Of a stretch of 64,000 bases of DNA, positions 19,624-56,118 are shown in pieces. The stretch spans positions 160,001 to 224,000 of the forward strand of contig JBGUGD010000030.1 in assembly GCA_041697335.1 (NCBI GenBank). The letters are read 5' to 3'. The notes below the pieces were generated by a model. It was not told the origin of the DNA and did not search any database. It worked only from the letters and a program-made list of their open reading frames with translations. This DNA comes from Vampirovibrionaceae bacterium NZW_1234 (GTDB lineage Bacteria > Cyanobacteriota > Vampirovibrionia > Vampirovibrionales > JAGQHJ01). Made by a program: the position numbers and the translations under genes. The first letter of the stretch is position 1. Each line of letters opens with the position of its first letter.

Positions 19624-21045
19624 TTAGTTAAAGTGACGGTTTCCGCTGTAGAGCTTGTTTATGAAGTAGGTACGGTTTTGGGCAATCATATTGGCAAAAT
19701 AGTTGGCCGCGCGAGCTTGGATTTTGCGATCGGGATTCAGTAATCCATTCAACGCACTTTGCGAGACACGCTGTTCCCGGTCGGCATGTTTTTCCCCAAA
19801 GGCATCTCGACGAGACAGTTCATAAGCGGTTTCCTCGGCGGCCAGAGCAATCAGCTGGGGAAGATCATCATGTTGGATTTTATCCATCACAATTTGACGG
19901 ATTTTGGGTCGCGCTTTGAAGAGGTCTTCCACACGTTCACGGAAGTTGCCGAATTGATGCGGGGATTCCTGCACCCGTTTGGTTGCGCCGGTGATTTTGG
20001 TGAAGAACAGAATACCCTTCAAGCGAGTTGAGAGGTTTGCTGACTCCAAATTCTCCAGCGCTTCTCGGGTTTGTTGCAGCACGGGAGGTTCTTCATCTGG
20101 CGCGGGGGCGGGTTGAGAAGGATCCTGCAAGGCCTTTATTTCGGCTAACTCACGTGAGGCGAGAAAAGCGGTTTGCGCAACATCCATGCTTTGAATGCCA
20201 AAGTAGCTGGCATGGCGTCTGAACTCAGCTTCTAATGCCTTAGGTCCTTTAAATATACTGTGGATCTGTGTCACGAAGTGGCGGAATCCTTTAATCCATT
20301 GCCCCGAAAAAGTGGTGCCTTGCTCGGGTGTTTCTTTCGCTGTAACGAGGAGAAATTTGGGATTGTTTTTTCGGGCTTGGGACTTAAAAAACTCGGGATA
20401 CAGCTGGGATAAATCACCGGATTTAACAAAAGCTTTCAGGAAAAATTGTGCGGCATCGGCTTGCTCATCCTTATCTTTGGATACCAGGGCATTTAATTTG
20501 TCCATTAATAGAGGGTGTTGGAGTTGAAGAGGGCTGGCTTCACCGGCTTTGACTCCCAAGTCTACAAAGTGGAGAAAGTGGCCCACATGTTTTAAAAACC
20601 CTTTAGCTCCTTGCTGTTCATGGCGGGCCATCGGCAAGGTGGGCTCGTTCATCAGGTTGGTTAATGCCGCTTTAAACGGTTCGTTCTCAGCGGCAATCCG
20701 ATTCAGTGTTTTGGTATAAAATTCCGGCGATTTGGCTTTTTTCAGGTGGTCCATCATGGTTTTGGCTTGGCTCACACCCTGGGCGATACCTGAAAATAAG
20801 GCCTTGATTAGTTTAAAGGGCAAAGCTATTAGCTCATAAATGGCAGAAAAGAACTGTTGAAGAAGCGATGGGGGATTTTGAGCCTGTGAACTCTCAGTAG
20901 CGCCCGTCTTGGTGCGACCAGCAAAACGAATTGAATCAGCAGATGCAGCGGATAAGGTCACCTGGTGTCGGTTTGTCTGTTCAGTCAGGGTTGCACCAAG
21001 CATTCGGCTTGCGTAAGAGGGAGCCAGTCGAAGGGAGTCCACCAT
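19624..21045 (-). CDS. Hypothetical helical protein with RF-motif leader
   Basis: Likely start MVDSLRL at 21045; leader ends DSIRFAG; no recognised domain. Confidence 0.7.
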   Translation of the reverse strand: MVDSLRLAPSYASRMLGATLTEQTNRHQVTLSAASADSIRFAGRTKTGATESSQAQNPPSLLQQFFSAIYELIALPFKLIKALFSGIAQGVSQAKTMMDHLKKAKSPEFYTKTLNRIAAENEPFKAALTNLMNEPTLPMARHEQQGAKGFLKHVGHFLHFVDLGVKAGEASPLQLQHPLLMDKLNALVSKDKDEQADAAQFFLKAFVKSGDLSQLYPEFFKSQARKNNPKFLLVTAKETPEQGTTFSGQWIKGFRHFVTQIHSIFKGPKALEAEFRRHASYFGIQSMDVAQTAFLASRELAEIKALQDPSQPAPAPDEEPPVLQQTREALENLESANLSTRLKGILFFTKITGATKRVQESPHQFGNFRERVEDLFKARPKIRQIVMDKIQHDDLPQLIALAAEETAYELSRRDAFGEKHADREQRVSQSALNGLLNPDRKIQARAANYFANMIAQNRTYFINKLYSGNRHFN

Positions 21046-21173
21046 AGCATGTTCCTTGTTTCCTGAGGCGTGTACCGAGTATAACACCGCTCAAGATAAC
21101 TTTGTGTCGTGTTTTTCGTGAAGCGTTACAGATTGTTAATCAAGTTCAGGAAAGGGTGGTGGTGCGGCGGTAT

Positions 21174-35345: not shown

Positions 35346-35805
35346 AGCGGTTCACCTCACTATTCCCGTTTCTTCTTCCTGTGTTCCTGTTCGACTCGAA
35401 CTTATCGCCAAGATTGAATTCAAATTAATATTAAAAAATAGATGAACCAACCTAGTTATTGGCGACAGAGCATCCCCAGCGGGTCACCAGTCACATTTTC
35501 TAAAACCTTACGATTTAATCATATTTTGTCCATTCGATCAATACGCGTCATTGTTATGCGACGCGGAGCGAAAAATTTCGGTTGACATGACTGTCTGTGA
35601 TCGATAGGGTTAATACCGCCAATAGGCTTTTTAAGAGGAACCTTAGCTCTTCAAGTCGTGAAATAAAACTTTACTTGACATTGTGATAAGTAAGTTTGAT
35701 CATAAGTCAGTTATTATTCATATCACGAATAATAAATTAATTCTTTTCTATAACCTCTTAAACAGGCAGTATCGCATTAGGTAGTTGCAGAGTGAGATAG
35801 CAATA

Positions 35806-38058
35806 ATGAGAATAGCGAACTTAACTTCAGGGAATATGTTGCAGCGCACCAATCGGGGTGAGCAAGGTACAAAAAAAGTGGCACAGGGTAAACTGGGGAC
35901 TCAGTCTCCTTCGATGCCGACTGGCTATATGTCACTTTATGATAACGCTGGCCTTGCTGGGGTTCGATTCGGTGTTTCACTGAAAGGTGTTTTAAGTAAA
36001 TTCACCAACGCTGAATTTGATATTGCAGGCACCATGGCGCTTGAGCGCGAAGTGCCCATGCTGGACTACCTGAATGAGGTGGTGGATAAACCCGCTTTGC
36101 AGCGAAATACCAAACAGCGTATCTATGACATGATCACAGCCCGTGGAACGGACGATAAAAAAGTTCTGGGGCGTGAAGTGAAGACCTACAAGTTTTTTAC
36201 CGAACCTGACAATCCTGATGATGCCTTATTAGGTATGGAAGAACAGCTTCATACTGTTGTTGAACATTTACAGCAAGCAGCTTTGGGGACCGATGCCGGT
36301 AAAAAGCTTTTAATTCTGGTGGGTGGTCCTGGTAGCGGTAAGTCTACCGTCGCTCGGATTATTGTTCGAGGGTTGGAAAACTATTCTCGAACTGCCGATG
36401 GCGAACGCTACACGCTGAAATGGAAGTTACCTAAAGATGTGGCTCGCGCCATTGGTTTTGATAAACAGGAGTTTGTGGAAGAGGTCTACACTGATCCCGT
36501 CAAGCTGTTGCCTCTTGAAATGCGAAAAGATTTGGAAAAAACGTTAAACCGCAATAGCAAATTGCCCTATCCGATTAAGTTGTCCAAAGAAGGGTTACCA
36601 CCGGCCTCTCAAAAGCTTTACGACAAATTGCTGGCGTATGAAATTCAAAATGGTGGTCAAGATGGTGCTTTTGAGCGAGTTCTGCAAAAATATGCAATGG
36701 CCAAACGCTTTAAGGTCAGCTCTGTCCACCGGACCGGTTCGGGTAGCTTAGCCGCTGTTGATGGAAAGAGCTTAGACGTGACCCACATGTCCGGGGGCTC
36801 CAAAATGATTAAAGCGGCCACCTCCAGCGAAGGGGATCCGTGGGCCTATGATTTTGCCTCCGGTGAACTGTTTGCGGCTTCCGGTGGGGTCATGGAATTT
36901 ATCGAAATTCTGAAGCTGGATAAAGAGCACTTGTTGCCCATCTTGACGCTGAACGAAGAAGGCAAGGTGAAGCCCTCCAAGCAGCCACAGGTGGAAGTAG
37001 ACGAATTTGTTATTGCCCACACCAACTTGCCGGAATACGAAGCCAAGGCGGCTGATCCGGAAATGGCGGCAACCTGGGATCGGATGAAGATCGTTCGCTT
37101 CCCCTACAATACGGCAATTAGCTCTGAGCAGGCCATCTATGAGCGCAGCTTGCCTCTCTTGCATCAGCAAGGTATCAATGTTGCTCCGCATACGATGCGT
37201 ACGGCTTCCTTGTGGGTCATCTTGAGCCGACTGCTGCCAGCCAAGGATCGGAAGTTTGATCCCTTGACCAAAGCCCGTCTTTATAATGGCGAGCCGAATA
37301 AAGATATCGGGATGGCCGAAATTCGGGCCCTGAAAAAAGAAGGTGTGAAGGGCCGTGAAGGGATGGAAGGCATCTCGCCTCGGAAATTGAAAGATAACGT
37401 TATTCCGGCAATTATGACGCATCCGGATGTTCAGAAAACCAAATCCATTGATGGTTATGGTGTTTTGACCATTATTCGGGATAAGTTGGATTCCGGTGAA
37501 ATTGAGTTGGAAGGCGAAGTGAAAGACAAAGCCTACCAAAACCTGGAAATTGCTTTAAAAGATTTGGATGAGCACGTGAAAGAAGATGTCACGGAAGCCA
37601 TTGCCGGGGATCGGGATAACCTCAATGCCATCTTGGATGAATACCTGCGTAACGTGGAAGCCTTTGTGGATAAGAAAGATGTGAGCGATTGGCGTGGGAT
37701 TTCCTCTGGCCCCAGTGAACAGCTGATGCAATCCATCGAAAAGAAGATGGGGGTTTCCGACAATCGGACACACCGCCAAAAGCTGAATGCCATCTTAGGT
37801 TCCTATCGTCGTGATGGTAAGCCTATTGATCTGGATCTGTTCCCGGATATTAAAAAGGCCATTGTCCAACATGAGTTGGAACAATTGGAGCGCAACATTC
37901 CATGGAAGGCCTTGTGTACCACGGAGCCGTTGTCCACCAAGAAACAAGAAGATTATCGCCAGGGTGTCATTGGCAACCTGAAGAAAAAGGGGTACGACGA
38001 AGAGTCTGCACGTCACGCGCTGGCTCGGGTTGGTTCTCTGTTCAACACCAATAAGTAA
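35806..38058 (+). CDS. prkA: PrkA/YeaG-family AAA+ ATPase (serine kinase family) with N-terminal leader
   Basis: Walker A LVGGPGSGKST, DPWAYDFASGELFAASGGVMEFIEILK, VIAHTN, WDRMKIVRFPY, APHT, EGMEGISPR, C-terminal GYDEESA. Confidence 0.9.
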   Translation: MRIANLTSGNMLQRTNRGEQGTKKVAQGKLGTQSPSMPTGYMSLYDNAGLAGVRFGVSLKGVLSKFTNAEFDIAGTMALEREVPMLDYLNEVVDKPALQRNTKQRIYDMITARGTDDKKVLGREVKTYKFFTEPDNPDDALLGMEEQLHTVVEHLQQAALGTDAGKKLLILVGGPGSGKSTVARIIVRGLENYSRTADGERYTLKWKLPKDVARAIGFDKQEFVEEVYTDPVKLLPLEMRKDLEKTLNRNSKLPYPIKLSKEGLPPASQKLYDKLLAYEIQNGGQDGAFERVLQKYAMAKRFKVSSVHRTGSGSLAAVDGKSLDVTHMSGGSKMIKAATSSEGDPWAYDFASGELFAASGGVMEFIEILKLDKEHLLPILTLNEEGKVKPSKQPQVEVDEFVIAHTNLPEYEAKAADPEMAATWDRMKIVRFPYNTAISSEQAIYERSLPLLHQQGINVAPHTMRTASLWVILSRLLPAKDRKFDPLTKARLYNGEPNKDIGMAEIRALKKEGVKGREGMEGISPRKLKDNVIPAIMTHPDVQKTKSIDGYGVLTIIRDKLDSGEIELEGEVKDKAYQNLEIALKDLDEHVKEDVTEAIAGDRDNLNAILDEYLRNVEAFVDKKDVSDWRGISSGPSEQLMQSIEKKMGVSDNRTHRQKLNAILGSYRRDGKPIDLDLFPDIKKAIVQHELEQLERNIPWKALCTTEPLSTKKQEDYRQGVIGNLKKKGYDEESARHALARVGSLFNTNK

Positions 38059-38088
38059 CGCCTTTTTCAGCCAATCAGGAGAACGTTC

Positions 38089-40152
38089 ATGATACAGGTG
38101 TTGTATCGGAATCCGATTCATAATTTGCCTATGGCGAAAACCGTGAAGGTGCAGCGCCCTACAAAGGCTCTTCCTCAAGCGGTTGTTCGCTCCGGCTCGG
38201 CCTTGGCCAAGGTGTCCTCTGTGCCGCTTACTGCGACGCAATGGCAGGCCTATGTCTTGCCAAAATCCGATCGGCAAACCCGCTTTGGGATGAACTCGGA
38301 TATTTTCTCTCCCGGTGATATCCTACTGGGCGATCATCCTCCGGATGATGAGCTGGATGAGCTGGATGCGTCTCGTAAGTACCAGTGGGATATTATGACC
38401 CGGTCTCGGCCCGGATTCCCTCAAGGATGGCTACAACCGGAAGATACCGTATTTGTGGTCACCGATCAGATGCGGATGATGCAGGCCAATGCCCGAAATG
38501 GGTTTCCGCTTCGCTATAATCACTATAGCTGGGGTGAGGCCTTTAACCGGCTCTATCAAATGCAGGGCCATGGGTTGATGCGGATTTACGAAAGCGTCAT
38601 CAATACCAAGCCTTCGGTTGCCTATTTGTTGGATTTCAATCCGGTCTATGCACAGAAGCTGGTTATCGGACACGTGTTTGCACACACCGACTTCTTTAAG
38701 AATAATATCCGGTTCCAGGACTCGAACCGAGACATTATGCGAGTTATGGCCGACAATAAGCGCGCCATTGCCAAATATGCCTCTGACCCGATGATTTTAC
38801 GTAAAAGCGTCGGGAAAACCACCCCGGTGGAGCGGTTTATTGATGATTATAAGACGATGGAATGGCTCATTGACATGAGTAAATCCGCACCGCCGCCACT
38901 AACCCCCTATGGGCAGGCAACGGATCCATCTACGGTGGCTCAGGTGGATTTGGACATGGGGTTAAGCCGTCAAAAACTTGGCTTGGGTGGCTTGATGCGA
39001 GACTTTATTGTCTCTGAAGACGAGCGTTCGAAAGCCGTAGATGATGCGCTGACCCGTCGGGAAAATCGAATCAAAAACATTCCGCCAGAACCCACGCGAG
39101 ATGTCTTGGGCTTTTTAATTCAGCACTCTAAGTCGCTTGAACCTTGGCAGCGGGATATTTTAACCCGTCTTCGCGAAGAATCGTACTACTTTGCTCCTCA
39201 GATTCAAACCAAGGTTATGAATGAGGGGTGGGCGACCTGGTGGCATACCCGAATGGGTGCTGAAGGGGTCTATAAACCGGATGAGATGGTTCCGGTTGCC
39301 AAGATGATGGCCGGTGGTGAAGCTCATGACCCTCAGGGGCTTAACCCTTATTTGGTGGGTCGCACCATTTTCCATAATATCTATGAAAAAGCGGGGCGGG
39401 GTATTCCCATTGATGTGCCCGAGGAAGAACTGGTTAAACGCTATAGTATTGATGAGCTGATGGCGCTGAAAAAGAAACCCATTGACGATGAGTTGGGCAT
39501 CAAGGCCATTCAGCATGTGCGCAAATATGAAGATGATATGTCGTTCTTGCGCAAATATTTAACCGAGGACGTTGCCCGTGAATTGGGTCTGTACAATTAC
39601 GAAGAGGTAACCGATTTCCGGGGTAATACGGAAGAGGTTGTGACTTCCAAAGATTTCAATGCGGTCAAATCTCGGATTCTTCAAAATTATGACAATGGCG
39701 GTATGCCTATCATTGAAGTCGTCAATGGGGACTATCGCGGTCGCAGTGAATTGTTGCTGCGTCATGTCCATCTGTTCCAGGATCTGAATCGCAACGACGC
39801 CAAAGAGACGTTGAAATCGGTTTATCGGATGTGGGGTATGCCGGTTCACCTGGATACCTTCTACACCGCACCCGTGGATCCCAACCTGATTAACAGTTTG
39901 GTTCAATCGATCCGTAATGCCCGACAATATGGCCAAGGCAAAGCCTATTGGCGTGGCAGTGAAAAGACGTTACAGGAAATGGAACAAGAGTTGCATAAAC
40001 TGCAATCCAACAAGACGAAAGTCCCCATCCGATTCTCGACCGAAGATGGGAAGGATGTGTCCATTCGCGTCCTGAATGACAAAGGGGATACCACCAAAAA
40101 CTTCGATCCCAAAGATTTCGTGATTAAGGCAGACAGCGATTGGTATTGGTAG
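38089..40152 (+). CDS. spoVR: SpoVR/YcgB-family protein with N-terminal leader
   Basis: RYNHYSWG, IYESVIN, GHVFAHTDFFKNN, YFAPQIQTKVMNEGWATWWH, LNPYLVG, ELLLRH. Confidence 0.9.
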   Translation: MIQVLYRNPIHNLPMAKTVKVQRPTKALPQAVVRSGSALAKVSSVPLTATQWQAYVLPKSDRQTRFGMNSDIFSPGDILLGDHPPDDELDELDASRKYQWDIMTRSRPGFPQGWLQPEDTVFVVTDQMRMMQANARNGFPLRYNHYSWGEAFNRLYQMQGHGLMRIYESVINTKPSVAYLLDFNPVYAQKLVIGHVFAHTDFFKNNIRFQDSNRDIMRVMADNKRAIAKYASDPMILRKSVGKTTPVERFIDDYKTMEWLIDMSKSAPPPLTPYGQATDPSTVAQVDLDMGLSRQKLGLGGLMRDFIVSEDERSKAVDDALTRRENRIKNIPPEPTRDVLGFLIQHSKSLEPWQRDILTRLREESYYFAPQIQTKVMNEGWATWWHTRMGAEGVYKPDEMVPVAKMMAGGEAHDPQGLNPYLVGRTIFHNIYEKAGRGIPIDVPEEELVKRYSIDELMALKKKPIDDELGIKAIQHVRKYEDDMSFLRKYLTEDVARELGLYNYEEVTDFRGNTEEVVTSKDFNAVKSRILQNYDNGGMPIIEVVNGDYRGRSELLLRHVHLFQDLNRNDAKETLKSVYRMWGMPVHLDTFYTAPVDPNLINSLVQSIRNARQYGQGKAYWRGSEKTLQEMEQELHKLQSNKTKVPIRFSTEDGKDVSIRVLNDKGDTTKNFDPKDFVIKADSDWYW

Positions 40153-40161
40153 GGGTGACGT

Positions 40162-41952
40162 ATGATTATTAATCAACTTGGACAATTCATACAGAAACCG
40201 ACAAACACGGCTCGCCCCAGTGTTTCTCGGCGACCTGTGATGCCTGCGCTGAACCAGGATCTGTTTCAAATCTCCAGAGCGCAATCGGGCCAGAGTCGGC
40301 AAGTTCGTTTTTCGGGCGATGACGATGGCATGACCGATCCGGATACCAAGCGTTTCTGGGATATTGTCAAAGGTGTTGAGACGCCGGAGCACTTGCTGGA
40401 TCAAATTACCCGAGGCGGTTTAAAAATTGGCCAGGATGGTGGTGTGACGTTGCCGATGCCGACCATTAACCGCCCCACGTTCTCTTATAAACCCAATAGC
40501 GATAGCAATGATGATGGCGACGGCGATGGCGATGGGGATGGTCAAGGTGGACCAGGACAAGGCCCCGGTAAAGGTGGCGGTGTTGGGAGCAATCCTGGTG
40601 CCGGACCAGGTGACGTCATTGGTCAGGATGGCGATGGCGAAGGTGATGGCCAAGGTGGCAAAGGTGCTGGCCAAGGCGGTGGTGGTGGTGGCCGTGAAAA
40701 ATGGGAACGCCGCCTCACGGGAACCGAAGTTGCGAAATTGCTTGAGCAATTGGAACTCCCCTATTTGCAAGACAAAGGGCGGGGCCAGTTCCAACATGCC
40801 GGAATTCGGTGGAATAACAAGCGTCAACCGCCGCCGGGGATCCCGCTCAGAGAGTCGTATGATCCGGCCATTGCACGTGAAACATTCCACGTGAGTCAGG
40901 AACAAAAGAAGTTTATTGGCGAGCTTTATCAGGTGGCCTTTGGGCGAGAGCCTCAGGATGACGAGCTGGATTATTGGAAAGACGTACTCAAGGAGCTTGA
41001 GGCGGATAACCAGATGGATCTGGAAAACGTTGAGCCGTTGTTGATTGGCGAGTTTTTAACCTCGGAGCAGTATCAACAGCAGTTTGGCGGCAAAACCGAT
41101 AAGATGATTTCGGATGCCTACAAGCTGGCCATCGGCAAAGCGCCTTCTCGTCATGGGATTGAACTCTGGAGCAGCAAATTGGAAACCGGCTTAACGGTTA
41201 AAGATATGCCGCTTGCGCTTTACCAGATGTTTGGCGACAAGATGGACAGCCGACGTCGGAATATCGTTTTTAATCCCGATAATCTGATTATTGCACCCAA
41301 GGAAGTGCGACGCATTGACTGGAAAGAACACAAGAAGCCTTTTTCTCAGGCCGTTATTTTCTATGTCATGGATGTTTCCGGATCCATTTCCGATCAGGAT
41401 AAAGAAATGGCCCGGATGAACAACTACTTGCTCTCGACCTGGGTGAAATACCAGTATGGTTTGAAAGTGGCCAAGATGCAGGGCAAAAAGTACAACGACA
41501 AAGAATTTTTCGGCAAAAGTGTCGCTGAGCGTCATATCATTTTTACCGAGACTGCCAAAGAAGTGGATGCCGATGAGTTTTACACCACCTCTCAATCCGG
41601 TGGAACCAGTATTTCATCGGGGTTGAAGATGGTCGAAGAGATTATTGACAAAGATTATCCGCCCAAGGATTGGAACGTGTATGTGTTTGTTTATAGTGAC
41701 GGGGACTCTTGGAGCGACAACGATAAGTCCGTCAAGATTATTCAGGACTTGGAGAAAAAAGGGATTAATCTCATGGCATACGGTCACTTAGGGCAACGAA
41801 GCAGCATTTCCGGCAGTAATTTTGCCAATGTGCTCAATGAAAAATTCAAGGAATCCAAGACCGTGCGTCTTGCTGTCCTGGATCGTCCTGAGATGAAAAC
41901 CTATAAAGAAGCCATAAAAGCCATGTTGGCGAAAGAGAAGGAGGCTGTGTAA
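40162..41952 (+). CDS. YeaH/YhbH (DUF444) vWA-domain protein with leader and inserted domain
   Basis: Gly/Asp-rich linker, LELPYLQDK, MIDAS MDVSGS, SGGTSISSG, YPPKDWNVY, SDGD. Confidence 0.85.
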   Translation: MIINQLGQFIQKPTNTARPSVSRRPVMPALNQDLFQISRAQSGQSRQVRFSGDDDGMTDPDTKRFWDIVKGVETPEHLLDQITRGGLKIGQDGGVTLPMPTINRPTFSYKPNSDSNDDGDGDGDGDGQGGPGQGPGKGGGVGSNPGAGPGDVIGQDGDGEGDGQGGKGAGQGGGGGGREKWERRLTGTEVAKLLEQLELPYLQDKGRGQFQHAGIRWNNKRQPPPGIPLRESYDPAIARETFHVSQEQKKFIGELYQVAFGREPQDDELDYWKDVLKELEADNQMDLENVEPLLIGEFLTSEQYQQQFGGKTDKMISDAYKLAIGKAPSRHGIELWSSKLETGLTVKDMPLALYQMFGDKMDSRRRNIVFNPDNLIIAPKEVRRIDWKEHKKPFSQAVIFYVMDVSGSISDQDKEMARMNNYLLSTWVKYQYGLKVAKMQGKKYNDKEFFGKSVAERHIIFTETAKEVDADEFYTTSQSGGTSISSGLKMVEEIIDKDYPPKDWNVYVFVYSDGDSWSDNDKSVKIIQDLEKKGINLMAYGHLGQRSSISGSNFANVLNEKFKESKTVRLAVLDRPEMKTYKEAIKAMLAKEKEAV

Positions 41953-41954
41953 CG

Positions 41955-44684
41955 ATGGTTGACTCCATTTCTTTTTCTTCTTTGCCAGCGTTGGTTCGGC
42001 GTCGGTCGCTGTCGACCCCGGTAATGCCCAGAAAACCCATTGTGGTTACCCCGGGGTTAAAATCCTCAGCGTTTGGGTTGGCCAAGGGTGTTCATTACCA
42101 GGCCTATGCCTTGCCTCGTTTCTCAGCGGCAAACACGACACCCGTTGTGAAAGAAGCGCCAGCCCAAACCCAAAGTGGCGCTGCTGCTGAAAACGCTGAA
42201 GCCCAGGCGGATGCGTTGCTGAGTAAAATCACGACCGACACGAAGGTAAAATTCAAAGAAACCAAGCCGATGATGAGCTTGAAAGAGTTTATCTCGCTGG
42301 TTTACCAAGATCCCTATAAATACCTGCCTACTGCCAGTCACTATGCGGTTCGCGGTTTGAAGTCCTTCGGAACCGAGAATAAACGGGTGATGGGTGAAGA
42401 TGTGGTGGCGCACAAGTTTGTGAAAGCGCCCTGGAAATCCCAAGCCTTAAACGAAATTCCCGGGCTCCTGGGTCAAGATGAGGTGATTTCTCAGATTATT
42501 GAAACCCTGGAAGATTTTTCCCGAACCGGGAAGCAGAATCGGATGATTTTGCTTGTCGGCCCCAAAGGCAGCGGAAAAAGTGAAACCTGGCGCCTGGTCT
42601 CCAAGGCCCTGGAACTCTATTCACATCGACCTGAAGGGGTGCGCTATACGTTGAACTGGGTCTTCCCCAAGAGCAATCCCTTCGATATTATTCGCCCCTT
42701 AATGACGGAAGACGATTACAATCAGTGGGAAAAGACCAAGCAAGGCTCTTCTACCGTATTGTCTCCCAAAAATATCGGGGCACTTCTAGAGTCTAATTTA
42801 AATATTCACCCGCTGTTCTTGTTGCCGGTTCAGGATCGCGAAGCTTTAATCCAGGATCTGCACCGCCGGGGTAAGATTCAGAATACGGCTGAATTTAGTT
42901 ACTTCATCAACGGTAAACTGGATTCCTACTCCCAGAAGATTCTTGATGCTCTGACCGAACACTACGACGGGGATATGAGCAAGGTGTTCAACCACGTGAT
43001 GGTCGAGCGCTGGACGATGTCTGAACAAAGTGGTAAGGGTCTTGGCATGGTGCCGCCTGCGGCAAACCGAGATGCGATGTTAAAACAGGTGACTCCCGAT
43101 GTTCGATGGGATAGGTTCCCAGCCTTCCTGCAACGAGCTGGCCTGATGAAACTGGTGGGAGCCTTGCCCAATGCCAATGGCGGCTTGTTTAACATGGAAG
43201 ATATGGGCCGTAACATGGACCCGACCCGTTATGTGTATCTCCTGATCACCGGCGAAACAGGGGAGACCATTATTGACACCCATGGCCAGGATGATGCATC
43301 CACAGTTCGTGAACAATTGGATGTGGTTTTTGTAGGCAGCGCCAACCCGGAAAGCATCTTAAAAATGATGAAAGAAGGGCAATGGGATGCTTTGTCGAAG
43401 CGGACCAAATTGATTTATGTGCCGTATTTGCGCCAATATCGTGAAGAAGCCCAGATTTACGAACCCTTGCTGGCCAATCAGCGTCAACGGGGTCGAAAGA
43501 TCGATCCGTTTGTCAATGAAGCCTTCCCGTTGTTTTTGACGACCACGCGTTTGCTGCCCGTCAATGCAGATAATGCGGCTTATAAAAAGGTCAATAGCGA
43601 TGAATTGACAGAAGGCTTGAAAAAGCTCGATCCGTTACGCAAGGCGTTGCTGTATCAAGGGGAAGATTTAAATTCCTTTGAAAGTTCGCCGAATAAGGTG
43701 CCGCCTTTTGAACGACGGATTCAAGAAGCCCTGCATGATCATGTGGCCCTGGTCAAACATGAGCATGACCCGGATTCTCGCTCGGACATTGTCTCGAACT
43801 TTGAAGGCAGTCATGGCATCGATCCTCGTGAAGGTGAGGATTTGATGAAGCGGATATTAAACTATGATCCGGAGTCGCCGGTGACGGTCTTGACGATGTT
43901 TCAAGCTCTTGCCGATGTGGTCAAAACGGATATGAAATATCAGCAGGATTTGGTGCAAGCCATTAAAATGGATCCCAATTTCTTTGGCAAGTTTCAGAAG
44001 CCCGGGGCCAAGAAAGATGAAAGCCCGGCCTTTGTTCCGACGCCCATTGATTTGCTGAAGATGGTCGAGGGCCATATGCGACGGAAAATGCAGGTGGAAA
44101 TCAAAGAGGCCTTGAAGGTCTATCATGAGCCCAAGATCTATGCCGACCAGATTCGCAAGTATATGGCCCATGTTGAGGCCCGTAACAATACGACTGAAAT
44201 AGACGATCCGGAGCTGCGTTCACCAACATCCACGGATAAAACACCCGATCCGAATTTCATGAAGCGAATTGAATTGATTATTGCGCCTAGTGCCGTGAAA
44301 TCGGATAAGGATTTAGAAACCTTCCGGCTGGAAATGATGGGCCGTCAAAAGCGATGGGATCGGAGCCAATCCGTACAGGACAACATCTTGCGGATTTATG
44401 AGCCCGAGGTAAAAACCTTGATGACCCATGATGAAACCAAGTTCCAGGAACACCTGGATCGGTTGCTGGCCGATCTGCCCAAGGTCTTGCGTAATCCCAA
44501 TATTTACGACAACCAGGCCGATAAAAAAGATCATGTGGAACAAATTTTAGGAGGTATTGCAAAACTCACCGAGCGCGGTATACCCAAGGAAGCGTTGCCT
44601 CAAATGGTGGAGTGGGCCTTTGATCCGGCTCGAAACTTTATCTCCGATGGTACATTTAAAATTAGGAGGCCCTCGCAGTCATGA
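41955..44684 (+). CDS. Second PrkA-family AAA+ ATPase with N-terminal leader
   Basis: NRMILLVGPKGSGKS, LELYS..PEGVRY, GALPNANGGLFNMED, FVGSAN, VPYL, FEGSHGIDPRE. Confidence 0.82.
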   Translation: MVDSISFSSLPALVRRRSLSTPVMPRKPIVVTPGLKSSAFGLAKGVHYQAYALPRFSAANTTPVVKEAPAQTQSGAAAENAEAQADALLSKITTDTKVKFKETKPMMSLKEFISLVYQDPYKYLPTASHYAVRGLKSFGTENKRVMGEDVVAHKFVKAPWKSQALNEIPGLLGQDEVISQIIETLEDFSRTGKQNRMILLVGPKGSGKSETWRLVSKALELYSHRPEGVRYTLNWVFPKSNPFDIIRPLMTEDDYNQWEKTKQGSSTVLSPKNIGALLESNLNIHPLFLLPVQDREALIQDLHRRGKIQNTAEFSYFINGKLDSYSQKILDALTEHYDGDMSKVFNHVMVERWTMSEQSGKGLGMVPPAANRDAMLKQVTPDVRWDRFPAFLQRAGLMKLVGALPNANGGLFNMEDMGRNMDPTRYVYLLITGETGETIIDTHGQDDASTVREQLDVVFVGSANPESILKMMKEGQWDALSKRTKLIYVPYLRQYREEAQIYEPLLANQRQRGRKIDPFVNEAFPLFLTTTRLLPVNADNAAYKKVNSDELTEGLKKLDPLRKALLYQGEDLNSFESSPNKVPPFERRIQEALHDHVALVKHEHDPDSRSDIVSNFEGSHGIDPREGEDLMKRILNYDPESPVTVLTMFQALADVVKTDMKYQQDLVQAIKMDPNFFGKFQKPGAKKDESPAFVPTPIDLLKMVEGHMRRKMQVEIKEALKVYHEPKIYADQIRKYMAHVEARNNTTEIDDPELRSPTSTDKTPDPNFMKRIELIIAPSAVKSDKDLETFRLEMMGRQKRWDRSQSVQDNILRIYEPEVKTLMTHDETKFQEHLDRLLADLPKVLRNPNIYDNQADKKDHVEQILGGIAKLTERGIPKEALPQMVEWAFDPARNFISDGTFKIRRPSQS

Positions 44685-45961
44685 CCGTTGCTCTGACCCC
44701 AGTGAATCAGTTTGTGTCCTCACGTTTATTGGCCAGTAAAGGGGGTGTTTCTCCCAAGCGGCCTGTATCCCGCCAGCCGCGTTTTGCCGGTCAATTCAGT
44801 CAGCCAGTAACGGCACCGGTATCCAATCAGCAATTGGTGTCGGCGCTCAAGGGCCAGGTTAAGTTTGGCTCCTTGGGACAACTGATCAGTATTGCCCCGG
44901 GGTATAAGTTGGGTGAAGCTCGGGCAGCTCATAACCAGCCCCTGAATCGGATGCCCAGCATTATTTTGGAAAGCGCCACCGGCGATAAAATCGCGATCGA
45001 TCCGGTTTCGGCCAATTTTGAGCGCAATATTATCGAGTTTACCGAAGATTTTAATCAAGACTCGGCTCGCGCCTTTAATGCCCAGGTCGATTTTCTGAAA
45101 AACAAAATCCTGGATAAACGTGCTAAGGGCGAAATTAAAGACCCCAGTGAAGAAACGGTTCATATTTACATCAATAGCCCGGGTGGGATGATTATCTCGC
45201 TTTATGCCATGATCGATGCTGTTGATACGTTGAAAAAAGCCAATATCCCCGTGGCTACCTACTGCCGTGGCATGGCTGCCAGTTGCGGTTCGGTATTGTT
45301 TGCCCTGGGTACTCCCGGCCAGCGTTATATGACCCCCCATGGGCGTGTTTTGGTGCACCAACCGTTGGGTGGAAGTTATGGTCAGGCAACGGATATCGGG
45401 CTTCAGAACGAAGAAATTCAAGAGATGAAAATTAAGCTGACCGATATTTTGTCCCTCTCTGCGCTGGAGGGCAAAATCATTCGATTGCAGAAAGAAGTGG
45501 ATCGCCTGTCGGAATCCGAAAATCAGTGGTCCCCGAATGTACAGGCCCGGCAAAAGCAAATTGCGCAATTTGAGGCGGAGAAAGTTCGGATTCGTAAAAC
45601 CCAGGAAGCTCGCACTCAACAGAAAATTTACATTACCCAGGCCGAAATGCTGAAAGCAGAAGACCGGAGTCAAGAAGCCGAAGAGGCCTTGGCTAAAGGC
45701 CAAAAGCTCGTAACCGATACCATTGCAGCCGTCACCAGCGAAGCCCGTGAGCAGGAGCGTCAGCGTTTAACCGAGGTGATTGCCAATTCCGATGGTGCGA
45801 CGAAGACTACGGCAGAACGAGAATTGAGACGCTTGGATGATCGCAAGGTCCCCTATAGCTCGACTCGCGAACGTATGGCCCAAGTCATGGAGCGCGATCG
45901 CTGGTTGACTGCTGAAGAAGCCGTTGAGTACGGCTTAGCGGACGGTATTGTCACCCGCTAA
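44681..45961 (+). CDS. clpP: ClpP-family peptidase with N-terminal leader and large coiled-coil insertion
   Basis: IYINSPGG, GMAASCGS (Ser201), VLVHQPLGG (His226), GQATDI, MERDRWLTAEEAVEYGLAD (Asp406). Confidence 0.85.
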   Translation: MTVALTPVNQFVSSRLLASKGGVSPKRPVSRQPRFAGQFSQPVTAPVSNQQLVSALKGQVKFGSLGQLISIAPGYKLGEARAAHNQPLNRMPSIILESATGDKIAIDPVSANFERNIIEFTEDFNQDSARAFNAQVDFLKNKILDKRAKGEIKDPSEETVHIYINSPGGMIISLYAMIDAVDTLKKANIPVATYCRGMAASCGSVLFALGTPGQRYMTPHGRVLVHQPLGGSYGQATDIGLQNEEIQEMKIKLTDILSLSALEGKIIRLQKEVDRLSESENQWSPNVQARQKQIAQFEAEKVRIRKTQEARTQQKIYITQAEMLKAEDRSQEAEEALAKGQKLVTDTIAAVTSEAREQERQRLTEVIANSDGATKTTAERELRRLDDRKVPYSSTRERMAQVMERDRWLTAEEAVEYGLADGIVTR

Positions 45962-48785: not shown

Positions 48786-49931
48786 CTATTCGATACCCAA
48801 CTGCCGCTGTTGTGGGATGATGCCCCGGGCTTGTTGCAGATTGGGCTGGATACCTGGATTGCCAGCAATGCCTTGTCTTGGAATGATGGGGCGAATCCCT
48901 GTAGCCTGCCCCGGTCTTATGCCAGGTTGGCCAAGGGGAGTCCCGGGTTGACCTTGTCCCACAAAAGGGGCACCTGTGGGATTGCCGACGCCTTGGAAGT
49001 TAATCCCTGGATTAACTTGTGGTGCTACGTTACCATTTCCCAGCTGCCCAATGATGTTGCCTGCTGGGGTATTGCCGCCGCTCAGGAGATCGATCCCTGC
49101 GTTCCCTTGCGGGATGGGTAAGCCGCCATTGGTGAATTGACCAATAATATTCCCGGCAGGAGAATTGCCGCCTGTGGCAATGTTCACACCACCATTGGGG
49201 CCGACTGTGGGAAACCCGCCATTGGTGAGTTGGCCGATGATATTCCCGGCAGGAGAATTGCCGCCTGTGGCAATGTTCGCACCACCATTGGCACCTACGA
49301 CGGGGAAGCCTCCGTTGGTGAGTTGAGCAATAATGTTGCCCCCGGGGGAATTCCCACCCGCTGCAATATTGGCCCCACCGGTACCCATGGAGACGGGAAA
49401 GCCGCCGTTGGTGAGGAGGGAAATAATACCGGCACTGCGGGTTGTCCCGCCGCTTAAGACACTGTTGTCAAAATTGGGCAGAAAACCAAAGGGGTTGTTG
49501 CCGAAAATTTGAGAAACGATATTGGTTCCTTGCCGCCAGGGTGGCGTCCAGGAGACGGGTAACCCAATCGGGCGCCCAGGACCGATATTGGGGCGACCAA
49601 ACCCACTGAACCAGTTTTGACTTTGGTTGAGTACCACTTGCAGGAGTTGAATAATGACATCGAGCAATTGATCATCCAGGGAGGGTCTTGTGGGGCCTGG
49701 AGGAGAAATCCGTCTTGTCAGAGATGCACTGGTTTCGGGAGGGGCATCAGCACCCCGGGTGCCACCATTGGTAGCGCCATTGGAACTGCCGCCACCGCTT
49801 GTTTCTGGGTTTGCAAGGCGAATAAAGCTAAATGACTCAATCTGTCCTTCATTGTCGGTTTTGATTTTGAGCTCGCCATTCTTGGGCAAGCCGCGCACCA
49901 TCGACGCTGGGTTCAATGCCACGTCAGACAT
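48786..49931 (-). CDS. Gly/Asn/Pro-rich protein with 31-aa tandem repeats
   Basis: Start MSDVAL after GGAGG; four 93-bp repeats LTNGGFPxxxxxGGANIAxGGNSPAGNIIGQ. Confidence 0.75.
   Translation of the reverse strand: MSDVALNPASMVRGLPKNGELKIKTDNEGQIESFSFIRLANPETSGGGSSNGATNGGTRGADAPPETSASLTRRISPPGPTRPSLDDQLLDVIIQLLQVVLNQSQNWFSGFGRPNIGPGRPIGLPVSWTPPWRQGTNIVSQIFGNNPFGFLPNFDNSVLSGGTTRSAGIISLLTNGGFPVSMGTGGANIAAGGNSPGGNIIAQLTNGGFPVVGANGGANIATGGNSPAGNIIGQLTNGGFPTVGPNGGVNIATGGNSPAGNIIGQFTNGGLPIPQGNAGIDLLSGGNTPAGNIIGQLGNGNVAPQVNPGINFQGVGNPTGAPFVGQGQPGTPLGQPGIRPGQATGIRPIIPRQGIAGNPGIQPNLQQARGIIPQQRQLGIE
49044..49415 (-). repeat. Four 93-bp coding tandem repeat units
   Basis: Unit starts at 49415, 49322, 49229, 49136, then a partial unit from 49043. 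Confidence 0.85.
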
Positions 49932-50028
49932 TCGATACCTCCGAGAAAAATCCTTGATACACACACACGACACACAATCTATGTTTGTATAAAAACAGGC
50001 AAGTGTGGAATGCTGCCTTAAAAAAATA

Positions 50029-53850: not shown

Positions 53851-56118
53851 TTGTTCGTGATAGTCCCTGTACATCACGTCCCGGCACAATCAAGTGTTGT
53901 CCCCCCGAAAGCAAAAGGCTACGGGTACCCGCCAAAACACACCTATCTCCCAGCAGTTCAACACAATAGCCTATTTACCGCCCCCCGATTCGGGACGGAT
54001 AAGGAAGTGCATCGCACTGGGGAGACGAAGTTTATTCATGTCTTGCAACATGCGGCAGCCCCCTTTCGAGAATTGCTGCAAGGGCTCGCATTGGCGGTTC
54101 GCCGTTTTGGTCAATGGTTGGGCAATGTCTGGTTTCGGATTATGCGCATGGTGTCTCCGGTTTCGGTGCCCCAGCTGCGTGATGCTCTCAACCCGTTGAT
54201 GGTTCAAGCTCAACATCGGTTCCCCATTCCCATGGTTCGTGCCAAGCTCCTCAAAGAAGGGTCGCCGGATGCGCTTTTGCCCTATCGGGAGTTGGAGCGC
54301 CGCTATCGGCGGAATCCGGAGCAGCGGGTACGCTTGCTGGAAAACTTTGTGACCTCCGAAGCCACGGCTTATTTGGCCAGCCATCTGCTGGCCTTGCAGG
54401 AAGCCATCCGAAATCCGGGCCAACCCCTGCGGATTGATCGAAGCCACATCCCCGCGGCGGTTCGGATGGGGGTGGATGATGCCAATGCCATCGTGGCCCG
54501 GCGCACCAAAGAATTGCTTTATGCCAAGGACAAGCAGCCCATTGCGGACAACCTGTATAACCTGATTCTGGAGTCACCCAAGGTGGCCTTGCACGAGCAT
54601 TATCGTGGGTGTGCGCCCATGGCCATGGTGCGGGCGTGGTTTATGGCCCAGAATGACCCCATTGCCTTTAAGTCCAATGATGAGTTGGAAGAATACTGCC
54701 GGATTGATCGTCTGTTTACCCCGGACGGCGAGGGCCCGCTGTATCAACCGAGTTTGGATCGATACCGCTGGAAGAACGACAATATCGTCTCGGTCTCCAT
54801 TAATTCAACGGAGACGGCGTATATGGCGGCCTATATGTATACCCTTCGTTCCGGGTTGGAAAATGTCCGCTACTTCGAGTATCGCCTAAACCCCATCAGT
54901 AAAGGGGTAAAGGACTCTATCGCCTACGCAAAGGCCATCCAGCAGGGTATTCACGATGGCAAGATGTTTCTCAAGGAATCTCGGGGGCAGGATATTGATG
55001 CCAACCTGATCTATTCCGCCGACCGGCAGCCCAAACCCGGGGTGGAGGTGAACAATCCGCTGGCGCCAAAGATTGATGATCGGATTTGGCTGGCGATGAA
55101 GATTATTGTTCTGGCCATCAAGTCTCGTCTGATGGGGATGCATGTGACCGGGTTTGATGTTCAGGGCTCTGAAGCCAACTACGCCATTATGGACTTTGAA
55201 CCCGTGGCTCGGATGCTGGCCCGTTGGAATCGGGTGGCCAAGGCCATGAACCAGATGAAGATGCCGGGCTGGGAGAAGGACTACCGTGTGGGTGCAACGC
55301 TTCACTCGGGTGAAACGCCACTGTCCGGCTTGATTAGCCATAAAGATGCGCCCATTACCGGGGCCGAATCTGTGGAGCGTTCCGTGGAGCTGTTCACCCG
55401 GAAGGACACCTCGCCCATGAATCTGATGGCCGTGGGGCAGGCGATTCAACAGTTACTCAAGACCCCGGACACGCAACTGGATGACGCCACCACCTTACGG
55501 GTCATCGATCTGCTGTTGCCCAAGGAGGACCGACGGAAACTGGGGACAAGTCGCGGGGCCTTGAAAGCCGAATCCCAGGCCATGCCTGCGCCCAATGAGC
55601 TGCCCCCGGATCAGGACCCGGACATTGATACCCCGGTGCGCATTGGCCATGGGGTGCAGCTGAAGTTCGGGCCGCGTTGGTTGATTGATGCCTGCTGGAA
55701 GCACAAGATTGGGTTTGAACAATGTCCCAAGAGCAATGTGCAGACCGGGGCCGTGTCCTACTATAACGAATTGCCCACCCTGGTGATGTCTCGTCCCCGG
55801 GACGAGGGCCACGGGTTGATGGTGTCCATCAGCCGCGATAACGGGACGACCTCCAAGACGAATATGCCCAACGAACTGGTGAAGTTGACCCGTCACCTGA
55901 AGGCCCGTCACGAGGATCGCAAGCGCTTCCAGATCAACGGGATTCAAACGGCCTTTCTCTTTGACCCGGAGCTAAAGACCAAGATTCGCCAGGAGATGTT
56001 ACAGCGCTTCCACCGTCTGGAGTCTCGCCCGGCTTATGGTGAAGTCATTCGTCACGAGCAGGATCCACGTCTGTTTAAGCGGCTGATTGAAAATCGCCGG
56101 GGGGCTCACACGGCCTGA
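53851..56118 (+). CDS. Adenosine/AMP deaminase-fold protein with long N-terminal extension
   Basis: PKVALHEHYRG, ENVRYFEYR, VTGFDVQGSE, TLHSGE, RIGHG, EQCPKSN, SISRDN. Confidence 0.78.
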   Translation: MFVIVPVHHVPAQSSVVPPKAKGYGYPPKHTYLPAVQHNSLFTAPRFGTDKEVHRTGETKFIHVLQHAAAPFRELLQGLALAVRRFGQWLGNVWFRIMRMVSPVSVPQLRDALNPLMVQAQHRFPIPMVRAKLLKEGSPDALLPYRELERRYRRNPEQRVRLLENFVTSEATAYLASHLLALQEAIRNPGQPLRIDRSHIPAAVRMGVDDANAIVARRTKELLYAKDKQPIADNLYNLILESPKVALHEHYRGCAPMAMVRAWFMAQNDPIAFKSNDELEEYCRIDRLFTPDGEGPLYQPSLDRYRWKNDNIVSVSINSTETAYMAAYMYTLRSGLENVRYFEYRLNPISKGVKDSIAYAKAIQQGIHDGKMFLKESRGQDIDANLIYSADRQPKPGVEVNNPLAPKIDDRIWLAMKIIVLAIKSRLMGMHVTGFDVQGSEANYAIMDFEPVARMLARWNRVAKAMNQMKMPGWEKDYRVGATLHSGETPLSGLISHKDAPITGAESVERSVELFTRKDTSPMNLMAVGQAIQQLLKTPDTQLDDATTLRVIDLLLPKEDRRKLGTSRGALKAESQAMPAPNELPPDQDPDIDTPVRIGHGVQLKFGPRWLIDACWKHKIGFEQCPKSNVQTGAVSYYNELPTLVMSRPRDEGHGLMVSISRDNGTTSKTNMPNELVKLTRHLKARHEDRKRFQINGIQTAFLFDPELKTKIRQEMLQRFHRLESRPAYGEVIRHEQDPRLFKRLIENRRGAHTA

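Follow-up and report, generated by a model that had tools for sequence, protein, structure and literature searches.

The PrkA/YeaG-YeaH/YhbH-YcgB/SpoVR trio, known from Escherichia coli and Bacillus subtilis, occurs in many bacteria and influences both sporulation and survival under starvation, but what it does biochemically is a matter of dispute, with a kinase, a weak protease and neither of these having been proposed. Co-fitness of YeaG, YeaH and YcgB in six bacteria is reported (10.1101/072470). Members of the same three Pfam families are encoded, together with a second PrkA-type AAA+ ATPase (PrkA2) and a ClpP-type peptidase, within a 64,000-nucleotide stretch of DNA (hereafter the window; positions 160,001 to 224,000 of contig JBGUGD010000030.1, assembly GCA_041697335.1) of Vampirovibrionaceae bacterium NZW_1234, a member of the Vampirovibrionia. 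The five open reading frames, prkA1-spoVR-yhbH-prkA2-clpP, occupy positions 35806-45961 of the + strand and are separated by 30, 9, 2 and -4 bp. PrkA1 shares Walker A and B, sensor 1 and the Arg finger with the known trio, and YhbH, a protein with a von Willebrand factor A (vWA) domain, shares the metal ion-dependent adhesion site (MIDAS). The locus differs in its prkA-spoVR-yhbH order, in the added PrkA2 and clpP, in the leader present on every subunit and in far greater divergence. The five genes are inherited together and constitute a real, conserved module that was probably undescribed before.

Three other systems invite comparison. With ClpXP, ClpAP and ClpCP the locus shares the ClpP fold and triad, the pairing of ATPase and peptidase genes in an operon, and a family of ring ATPases whose loop has the form [ILM]G[FL]; however, the ATPase found here is of the PrkA type and not a Clp family member, its loop is placed behind Walker A, both the strict IGF (Ile-Gly-Phe) motif and the ordinary pocket are missing from the linked pairs, and the vWA protein and SpoVR would take the place of the known adaptors. 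In MoxR-type AAA+/vWA systems (CbbQ-CbbO, NorQ-NorD and also RavA-ViaA) an AAA+ gene likewise adjoins a gene for a MIDAS-bearing vWA protein, but the ATPases described here are much larger, have the PrkA C-terminal domain, occur as two paralogues and are accompanied by SpoVR and a linked peptidase. LonB and LonC are built on a related AAA+ plan, in which an insert follows Walker A, and a ring of such kind can feed a protease; in Lon the protease is fused, whereas here it would be a separate ClpP, and Lon_C gave no match in PrkA1 or PrkA2 at E 0.01. The VIA-align comparison of the PrkA2 model indicated CbbQ (Z 12.5) and NorQ (Z 12.2; root-mean-square deviations of 4.5-4.6), with RuvBL, ChlI, MCM and ClpA tied within 1 Z, and Foldseek returned weak matches to BchI, LonC, MCM and LonB, those to LonB/LonC having E about 1e-3.

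The initial annotation, made from the sequence alone, had described five co-oriented genes with the above spacing and a 4-bp overlap, and these coordinates were reproduced. Its family calls are likewise supported by Pfam scores over the cut-off for each gene: AAA_PrkA and PrkA in both ATPases, SpoVR and SpoVR_C, DUF444, and CLP_protease. The AAA_PrkA and PrkA domains scored 155 and 119 bits in PrkA1, and 66 and 45 bits in PrkA2 (cut-off 25), and the NCBIfam equivalog NF011999 (cut-off 576 bits) was not reached by PrkA1 or PrkA2 (117 and 30 bits). All five proteins are far under the NCBIfam equivalog cut-offs and are, therefore, divergent family members. The MIDAS of YhbH, also proposed previously, is complete (D404-x-S-x-S with S406 and S408, T482, and D513), as it is, applying a strict pattern, in 16 of the 20 class members.

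For the analysis of conservation, genomes were given G numbers, where G000 is the source genome, the other numbers are genomes of relatives, and the class is Vampirovibrionia. The PrkA2 profile was searched against 301 class genomes, with three candidates scored per genome, and matched in 26 of them, i.e., G000 and members of families f1 (4/4), f3 (12/25), and f9 (9/12), with zero matches in families f2 (19 genomes), f5 (96), f6 (30), and f7 (99). Across Vampirovibrionia neighbourhoods (only partially visible on the short contigs of G038, G080, and G107), the order prkA1-spoVR-yhbH-prkA2 is kept, and clpP is the gene directly behind prkA2 in 10 of the 18 clusters with a visible next gene (G000, G003, G012, G020, G022, G028, G034, G038, G090, and G107), where the spacing ranges from -4 to 42 bp. 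This count omits two clusters cut by contig ends, two trios without prkA2 and six stand-alone prkA2 genes. Since the five-gene arrangement recurs in relatives, it is more than chance, and the prkA2-clpP junction stays tight at about 28% PrkA2 identity.

The operon-linked ClpPs create one clade (support 93/92), separate from the housekeeping ClpP of tig-clpP-clpX loci and from the accessory ClpPs of the solo and the tandem family, and across 8 genomes they diverge in step with the remaining four genes (Mantel r 0.76-0.85, p <= 0.001). This co-divergence shows co-inheritance, not contact. Relocation of operon-type clpP in the unlinked genomes was considered and rejected: in 47 genomes no unlinked operon-type ClpP scored above ordinary ClpP, and nine top matches were the training sequences themselves; the other ClpP-like proteins, of 330-390 and ~700 aa, belong to separate clades. 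The median identity of PrkA1 is 27.5% within the class vs. 66.7% across other phyla. At the syntenic locus of G003 (G003:C53, compared with window positions 32683-53761), the five operon genes are 28-41% identical to those of G000, and their neighbours 40-74%.

Several peculiarities of individual clusters were also observed. The G003 operon genes fall into sub-clades different from those of G000, which would fit either very rapid evolution or a cassette that was swapped in place. The cluster at G044:C30:7800-16500 is fragmented in all four genes, through decay or an assembly error. In G032:C19 and G022:C1 there is a separate prkA-spoVR-yhbH trio whose members bear leaders; prkA2 is absent from it, a divergent clpB-like gene lies upstream, and the same upstream gene is present in G046.

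Outside the class, SpoVR loci were represented by the best 80 of 599 matches, obtained from 4 of the 64 parts of the collection, and removal of two class members left 78 loci, among which there are no named Gammaproteobacteria or archaea. Two-prkA clusters are known from haloarchaea, which thus lie outside this sample. The order prkA-yhbH-spoVR was found in 55 of the 78 loci, the same order with a reversed prkA in one, yhbH-spoVR in nine and spoVR alone in 13, in agreement with the earlier remark that the order described here is unlike the usual arrangement.

The two PrkA proteins represent different subfamilies. A local duplication of prkA1 as the origin of prkA2 was rejected, because PrkA2 proteins from outside the class group with the class PrkA2, which is thus an ancient paralogue. 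A separate PrkA2 (full-length or contig-cut) was present in 13/36 and 21/42 outside genomes, reached via SpoVR loci and belonging mostly to Myxococcota, Bdellovibrionota, other deltaproteobacteria and Planctomycetota. The Walker B Glu is present in all 34 PrkA1-type rows (E367 in the window), and its position is occupied by Asp in 10/10 outside PrkA2 and in nearly all of the 23 class rows (Asp416 in the window), the exceptions being G002, with Glu, and the poorly aligned G001. Walker A is carried by both ATPases, its Lys being retained in PrkA2, where the Arg finger is mostly retained too. On these residues, PrkA2 may be the slow subunit of a mixed ring. The PrkA1/PrkA2 hexamer envisaged by the initial annotation is not required: the solved PrkA entries 9XIP, 9XIQ and 9XIR hold 10 chains each (30 in total), and so the PrkA ring is not necessarily a hexamer.

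The coupling of PrkA to ClpP, proposed at the outset from gene order, gained support from a sequence feature that had not been linked with it before. In the outside PrkA2 proteins, the Walker A helix is followed by a strand and, just behind this strand, by a Gly-flanked [ILM]G[FLI] motif (e.g., GGIGFG, GSIGFA). In the discovery set it was present in 10/10 outside PrkA2 and in 0/16 ordinary PrkA (scored by eye; the pattern flagged eight), and in a fresh set in 21/21 and 0/9, respectively; the strict xGF form was found in 16/26 of the pooled, overlapping PrkA2 set. A conserved IGF in PrkA1 was considered as well and rejected, as it is present in the PrkA1 of the window alone. IGF loops of ClpX and ClpA bind hydrophobic H sites between two ClpP subunits (PMC9035409). 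Within the class, strict xGF was found in 0/10 clpP-linked vs. 7/11 unlinked PrkA2, the loose IGF-like motif in 2/10 vs. 9/11, and [FL]Dx[VILG], of which the window's FDII is an instance, in 6/10 vs. 0/11. These counts omit G001 and G004, whose stand-alone proteins are the two most divergent and lack the motif, G044, where there is a frameshift, and G060, where the sequence is cut and contains MGF. In the AlphaFold model of PrkA2 (predicted local distance difference test, pLDDT, 90), the loop is the flexible tip of a beta-hairpin (pLDDT 65-74), and this tip, with its Gly-rich context, would suit a candidate docking loop. The literature search listings contained no paper tying PrkA to ClpP or remarking on the IGF loop.

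The dedicated ClpP possesses the catalytic triad indicated in the initial annotation (Ser201/His226/Asp406), and the catalytic Ser and His are invariant among operon-type ClpPs. Its monomer model (pLDDT 86) matches ordinary ClpP with E 1.6e-14 and a TM score of 0.87 normalized by target, and the extra N-terminal segment is disordered in it. The docking pocket (H site), whose positions we assigned on the assumption that they correspond to the E. coli ClpP site, is altered: four positions invariant in 57/57 ordinary ClpP are retained in 0/17 operon-type ClpP, and the pocket Tyr in 3/17. The helical insertion of ~135 aa was rejected as a general docking device, since it is found as such in G000 only, being shorter in G020/G038 and missing from the six other aligned operon ClpPs. 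Besides the operon ClpP, the source genome encodes two apparently tandem ClpP-like proteins of ~720 aa (G000:C15:42857-44992 and G000:C14:100628-102808), with a degenerate first domain and an intact triad in the second; relatives have such tandem proteins and a separate solo family of leader-bearing ClpPs (330-370 aa), all with remodelled pockets.

Taken together, the above observations suggest the following model, for and against which we judge the chances to be evenly balanced: the five products would make up an ATP-dependent protease of novel composition, in which a PrkA1/PrkA2 ring, together with YhbH and SpoVR, would feed substrates to ClpP, and loop and pocket would have drifted jointly into a private interface. 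If so, the module would operate in the manner of ClpXP and ClpAP. In the predicted mixed ring, PrkA1 would be the main motor and PrkA2 the slow subunit that docks ClpP via its hairpin loop, and substrate capture would fall to SpoVR and the vWA protein YhbH. The PrkA2 of other phyla, and of class members that have no dedicated clpP, would use ordinary ClpP, and the IGF would mostly be kept; where a dedicated ClpP is kept, loop and pocket would drift together until the interface excludes ClpX and ClpC. Purified Bacillus anthracis PrkA is described as having no protease activity of its own, the activity being lost on purification (PMC13001217), which leaves room for a separate peptidase.

A number of observations weigh against this model. 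The expectation that clpP is conserved beside prkA in relatives is borne out in 9 of their 17 clusters, in three families, but clpP is missing at 8/18 clusters (G002, G030, G040, G043, G044, G054, G080, and G099), and it is, therefore, dispensable. Neither clpP nor a second prkA was found at any of the 78 outside SpoVR loci (flanks of up to 10 kb), and clpP, yhbH and spoVR were found in 0/13 outside prkA2 neighbourhoods. The clpP-link label changes only four times on the tree, so kin are not independent; the PrkA2 proteins of G030 and G040 are unlinked and yet without IGF, and the window's own PrkA2 has FDII instead of it. The loop follows Walker A, not sensor 1 as in ClpX/ClpC, and in LonB/LonC the matching insert lies where substrates enter, on the side facing away from the protease. 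The operon ClpPs of G022 and G028 have another residue in place of the catalytic Asp. Furthermore, pocket remodelling is just as marked in the accessory ClpPs of the solo and the tandem family, which weakens the lock-and-key reading, and loss of the ordinary pocket may reflect general fast drift of the kind visible in the PrkA1 identities given above. Several of these points would fit a MoxR/vWA-like remodelling chaperone composed of PrkA1/PrkA2, YhbH and SpoVR, with ClpP as an ATPase-independent peptidase that is only co-expressed (and co-exported) and a loop that binds another partner. Such an arrangement, which we consider rather unlikely, would agree with the loss of the ordinary pocket in all three accessory ClpP families, the clusters lacking clpP, the loop outside the ClpX position, the many stand-alone hydrolases among leader-bearing proteins and the presence, among the top fold matches, of CbbQ and of NorQ, whose structure was determined together with that of its vWA partner NorD. 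It leaves unexplained why a ClpP-type IGF/LGL is invariant in the very subfamily that gained a clpP neighbour and why strict xGF is missing from 10/10 linked PrkA2, and the persistence of the tight prkA2-clpP junction through such divergence also argues against it.

Two further explanations appear far less probable. The operon ClpP might serve a conventional Clp ATPase (leader-bearing ClpC-like, housekeeping ClpX/ClpC, or an enzyme of the prey), with the operon ensuring co-regulation; G000 does encode a leader-bearing ClpC-like ATPase with an FGF loop (G000:C15:25627-28215), as well as ordinary ClpX (MGF) and ClpC (FGF). We regard this as very improbable, given that the pocket needed by such loops is remodelled in 17/17 operon-type ClpPs and that the leader-bearing ClpC has a clear orthologue in G003 alone among the 28 genomes searched with its D2 part. 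It is very improbable, in turn, that the module is the textbook YeaG/PrkA Ser/Thr-kinase signalling unit or a self-contained protease, and clpP a downstream or unrelated passenger. Kinase activity of E. coli YeaG and ATP-dependent caseinolysis by B. subtilis PrkA have been reported (PMC9512850); according to the same source, kinase activity was not reproduced for B. subtilis PrkA, and the protease activity of B. anthracis PrkA disappeared on purification (PMC13001217). Pfam detected no kinase or Lon protease domain in PrkA1 or PrkA2, and neither occurs among the listed fold matches of the C-terminal part, although the latter is a weak test.

The leaders raise the question of where the module operates. 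Each of the five proteins starts with a segment of 48-64 residues that is poor in acidic residues, rich in Ser, Thr, Pro and Gln, and ends in [VTP][RK]F[GS]; this segment contains neither a Sec-type hydrophobic stretch nor a Tat motif. The presence of a leader on every subunit, from which the initial annotation had deduced that the whole machine may be exported or compartmentalised, was confirmed (five of five), but the leader is not operon-specific: it occurs genome-wide, on 190 of the 2896 predicted G000 proteins vs. 42 in shuffles. Among the 185 other leader-positive proteins, 77 were scanned, and 44 of these had no Pfam family; the remaining 33 comprised FtsH-, Lon-, and Clp-like ATPases, two trypsins, calpain-like and M16 peptidases, an amylase, enzymes of metabolism and a rod-binding FlgJ-type protein, with some clear false positives among them. 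The leader set is rich in proteostasis enzymes, and citrate synthase, aldehyde dehydrogenase, lactate/malate dehydrogenase (LDH/MDH) and RtcB are also in it. The window contains two further leader-bearing genes, at 19624-21087 (-) and 53851-56118 (+), of which one has no Pfam family and one is adenosine-deaminase-like.

Type III secretion signals are typically disordered, acid-poor, Ser/Thr/Pro-rich N-termini. The five leaders resemble them in being acid-poor, Ser/Thr/Pro-rich, non-hydrophobic and disordered, and a flagellar-type apparatus is encoded in the genome; they differ in the fixed RF[GSA] motif and in a cargo that would have to reassemble into a multi-subunit ATPase, and their export is only predicted. 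In G000, flagellins are encoded, together with two FlhA paralogues that share a single FliI-type ATPase; members of the order as a rule carry FlhA twice. The FlhA loci are located at G000:C32:10110-20950 and G000:C2:99137-104324, the second in a flgF/G/B/C-fliE-fliF-fliH-flhA2-fliI operon. Four class genomes (G052, G053, G054, and G060) have FlhA without a flagellin match, and possibly keep it for a flagellum-derived export system outside motility. The two FlhA in the order and the FlhA kept in these four genomes make a type III route plausible. Type IV secretion, invoked in the published model for V. chlorellavorus (PMC4451040), was rejected as the exporter, because no VirB4-family match was found in G000 (genome 94.75% complete). 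The literature search listings held nothing on the leader or the second FlhA.

On balance, we slightly favour the view that the shared leaders export all five chains, which would assemble beyond the cytoplasm, perhaps inside prey; the leading, though tentative, candidate for the exporter is a type III apparatus of the flagellar type with a second FlhA. In the opposite case, to which we give a smaller though appreciable chance, the same machine would be cytoplasmic and the leaders would be tags for processing, stability or assembly, which is compatible with either coupling model. Consistent with the latter are the occurrence of leaders on citrate synthase, aldehyde dehydrogenase and LDH/MDH, which are ordinary enzymes of metabolism, the need of an exported five-part ATP-driven machine for reassembly, and the N-terminal extensions without the motif in several f9 cluster proteins. 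A leader-FlhA link was also unseen in the small cross-genome samples: no leader enrichment was found among 114 genes of G052, in which FlhA is kept, nor among 95 genes of G065, nor among 130 of G050, in which no FlhA was found. A cytoplasmic location is harder to reconcile with the high share of proteins without a Pfam family, besides proteases and an amylase, among the leader-bearing ones sampled, with the leader motif on the FlgJ-type rod-binding protein and a basal-body lytic transglycosylase, and with the divergence of the module, faster than that of its neighbours in the G000-G003 comparison.

The features of the locus are collected in Table 1. The promoter and terminator scans of the region gave matches at chance level (14 sigma-70-like matches vs. 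a shuffle mean of 14.6), so the predicted co-transcription of the five genes rests on their spacing. Downstream of clpP, at a distance of at least 102 bp, pepA is located. The DUF4214-like insert of YhbH corresponds to aa 247-278 (window 40900-40995), and a long YhbH (674 aa) is also present in G030 and G040. Window positions 48786-49973 (-) encode a low-complexity protein of 395 aa that is rich in Gly and Asn, contains internal near-repeats and belongs to no Pfam family.

Table 1. Features of the prkA1-spoVR-yhbH-prkA2-clpP locus (window coordinates)
Feature	Position	Strand	Remarks
sigma-70-like promoter match, candidate only	35675..35703	+	best upstream of the cluster; 10/12 positions
prkA1, canonical-type PrkA/YeaG AAA+ ATPase	35806..38058	+	750 aa; K179 (Walker A), Glu367 (Walker B), sensor Asn407, Arg426
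N-terminal leader of PrkA1	35806..35973	+	end VRFG, aa 53-56
IGF tripeptide of PrkA1	36451..36459	+	same hairpin loop as the IGF of the PrkA2 family; 1/34 PrkA1
spoVR/ycgB homologue	38089..40152	+	687 aa; leader end TRFG, aa 64-67
yhbH/yeaH (DUF444), vWA protein	40162..41952	+	596 aa; Gly-rich linker, DUF4214-like insert, leader end VRFS
prkA2, second-subfamily PrkA AAA+	41955..44684	+	909 aa; K208 (Walker A), Asp416 (Walker B), Arg483; leader end PRFS
Post-Walker-A beta-hairpin tip loop of PrkA2, candidate ClpP-docking loop	42660..42776	+	FDII here; IGF/LGL in the family
dedicated clpP	44681..45961	+	426 aa; S201/H226/D406; 4-bp overlap with the prkA2 stop; extra N-terminal segment
ClpP leader with two motifs	within 44681..45961	+	PRFA and VKFG
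ClpP insertion	45458..45865	+	~135 aa; predicted long helices

In its broadest form, which we hold to be improbable as a whole, the proposal would make PrkA2 a new family of ClpP-partner ATPases beyond Clp/Hsp100, and PrkA/YeaG-YeaH-SpoVR a vWA-assisted, ClpP-feeding unfoldase in Myxococcota, Bdellovibrionota, Planctomycetota and other phyla; in Vampirovibrionia, this machine would be gathered in one operon, tagged with leaders and injected whole into prey or host via a flagellum-derived type III apparatus. To the disputed trio the locus adds a clue resembling that of a gene fusion, the dedicated clpP, which led to a clue in the sequence, the invariant IGF-like loop of the PrkA2 subfamily. If the model is true, ClpP has a class of partners unrelated to ClpA/C/X and helped by a vWA protein, and should the leaders prove to be export tags, what a predatory lineage delivers would be complete ATP-dependent machines, not single effectors.

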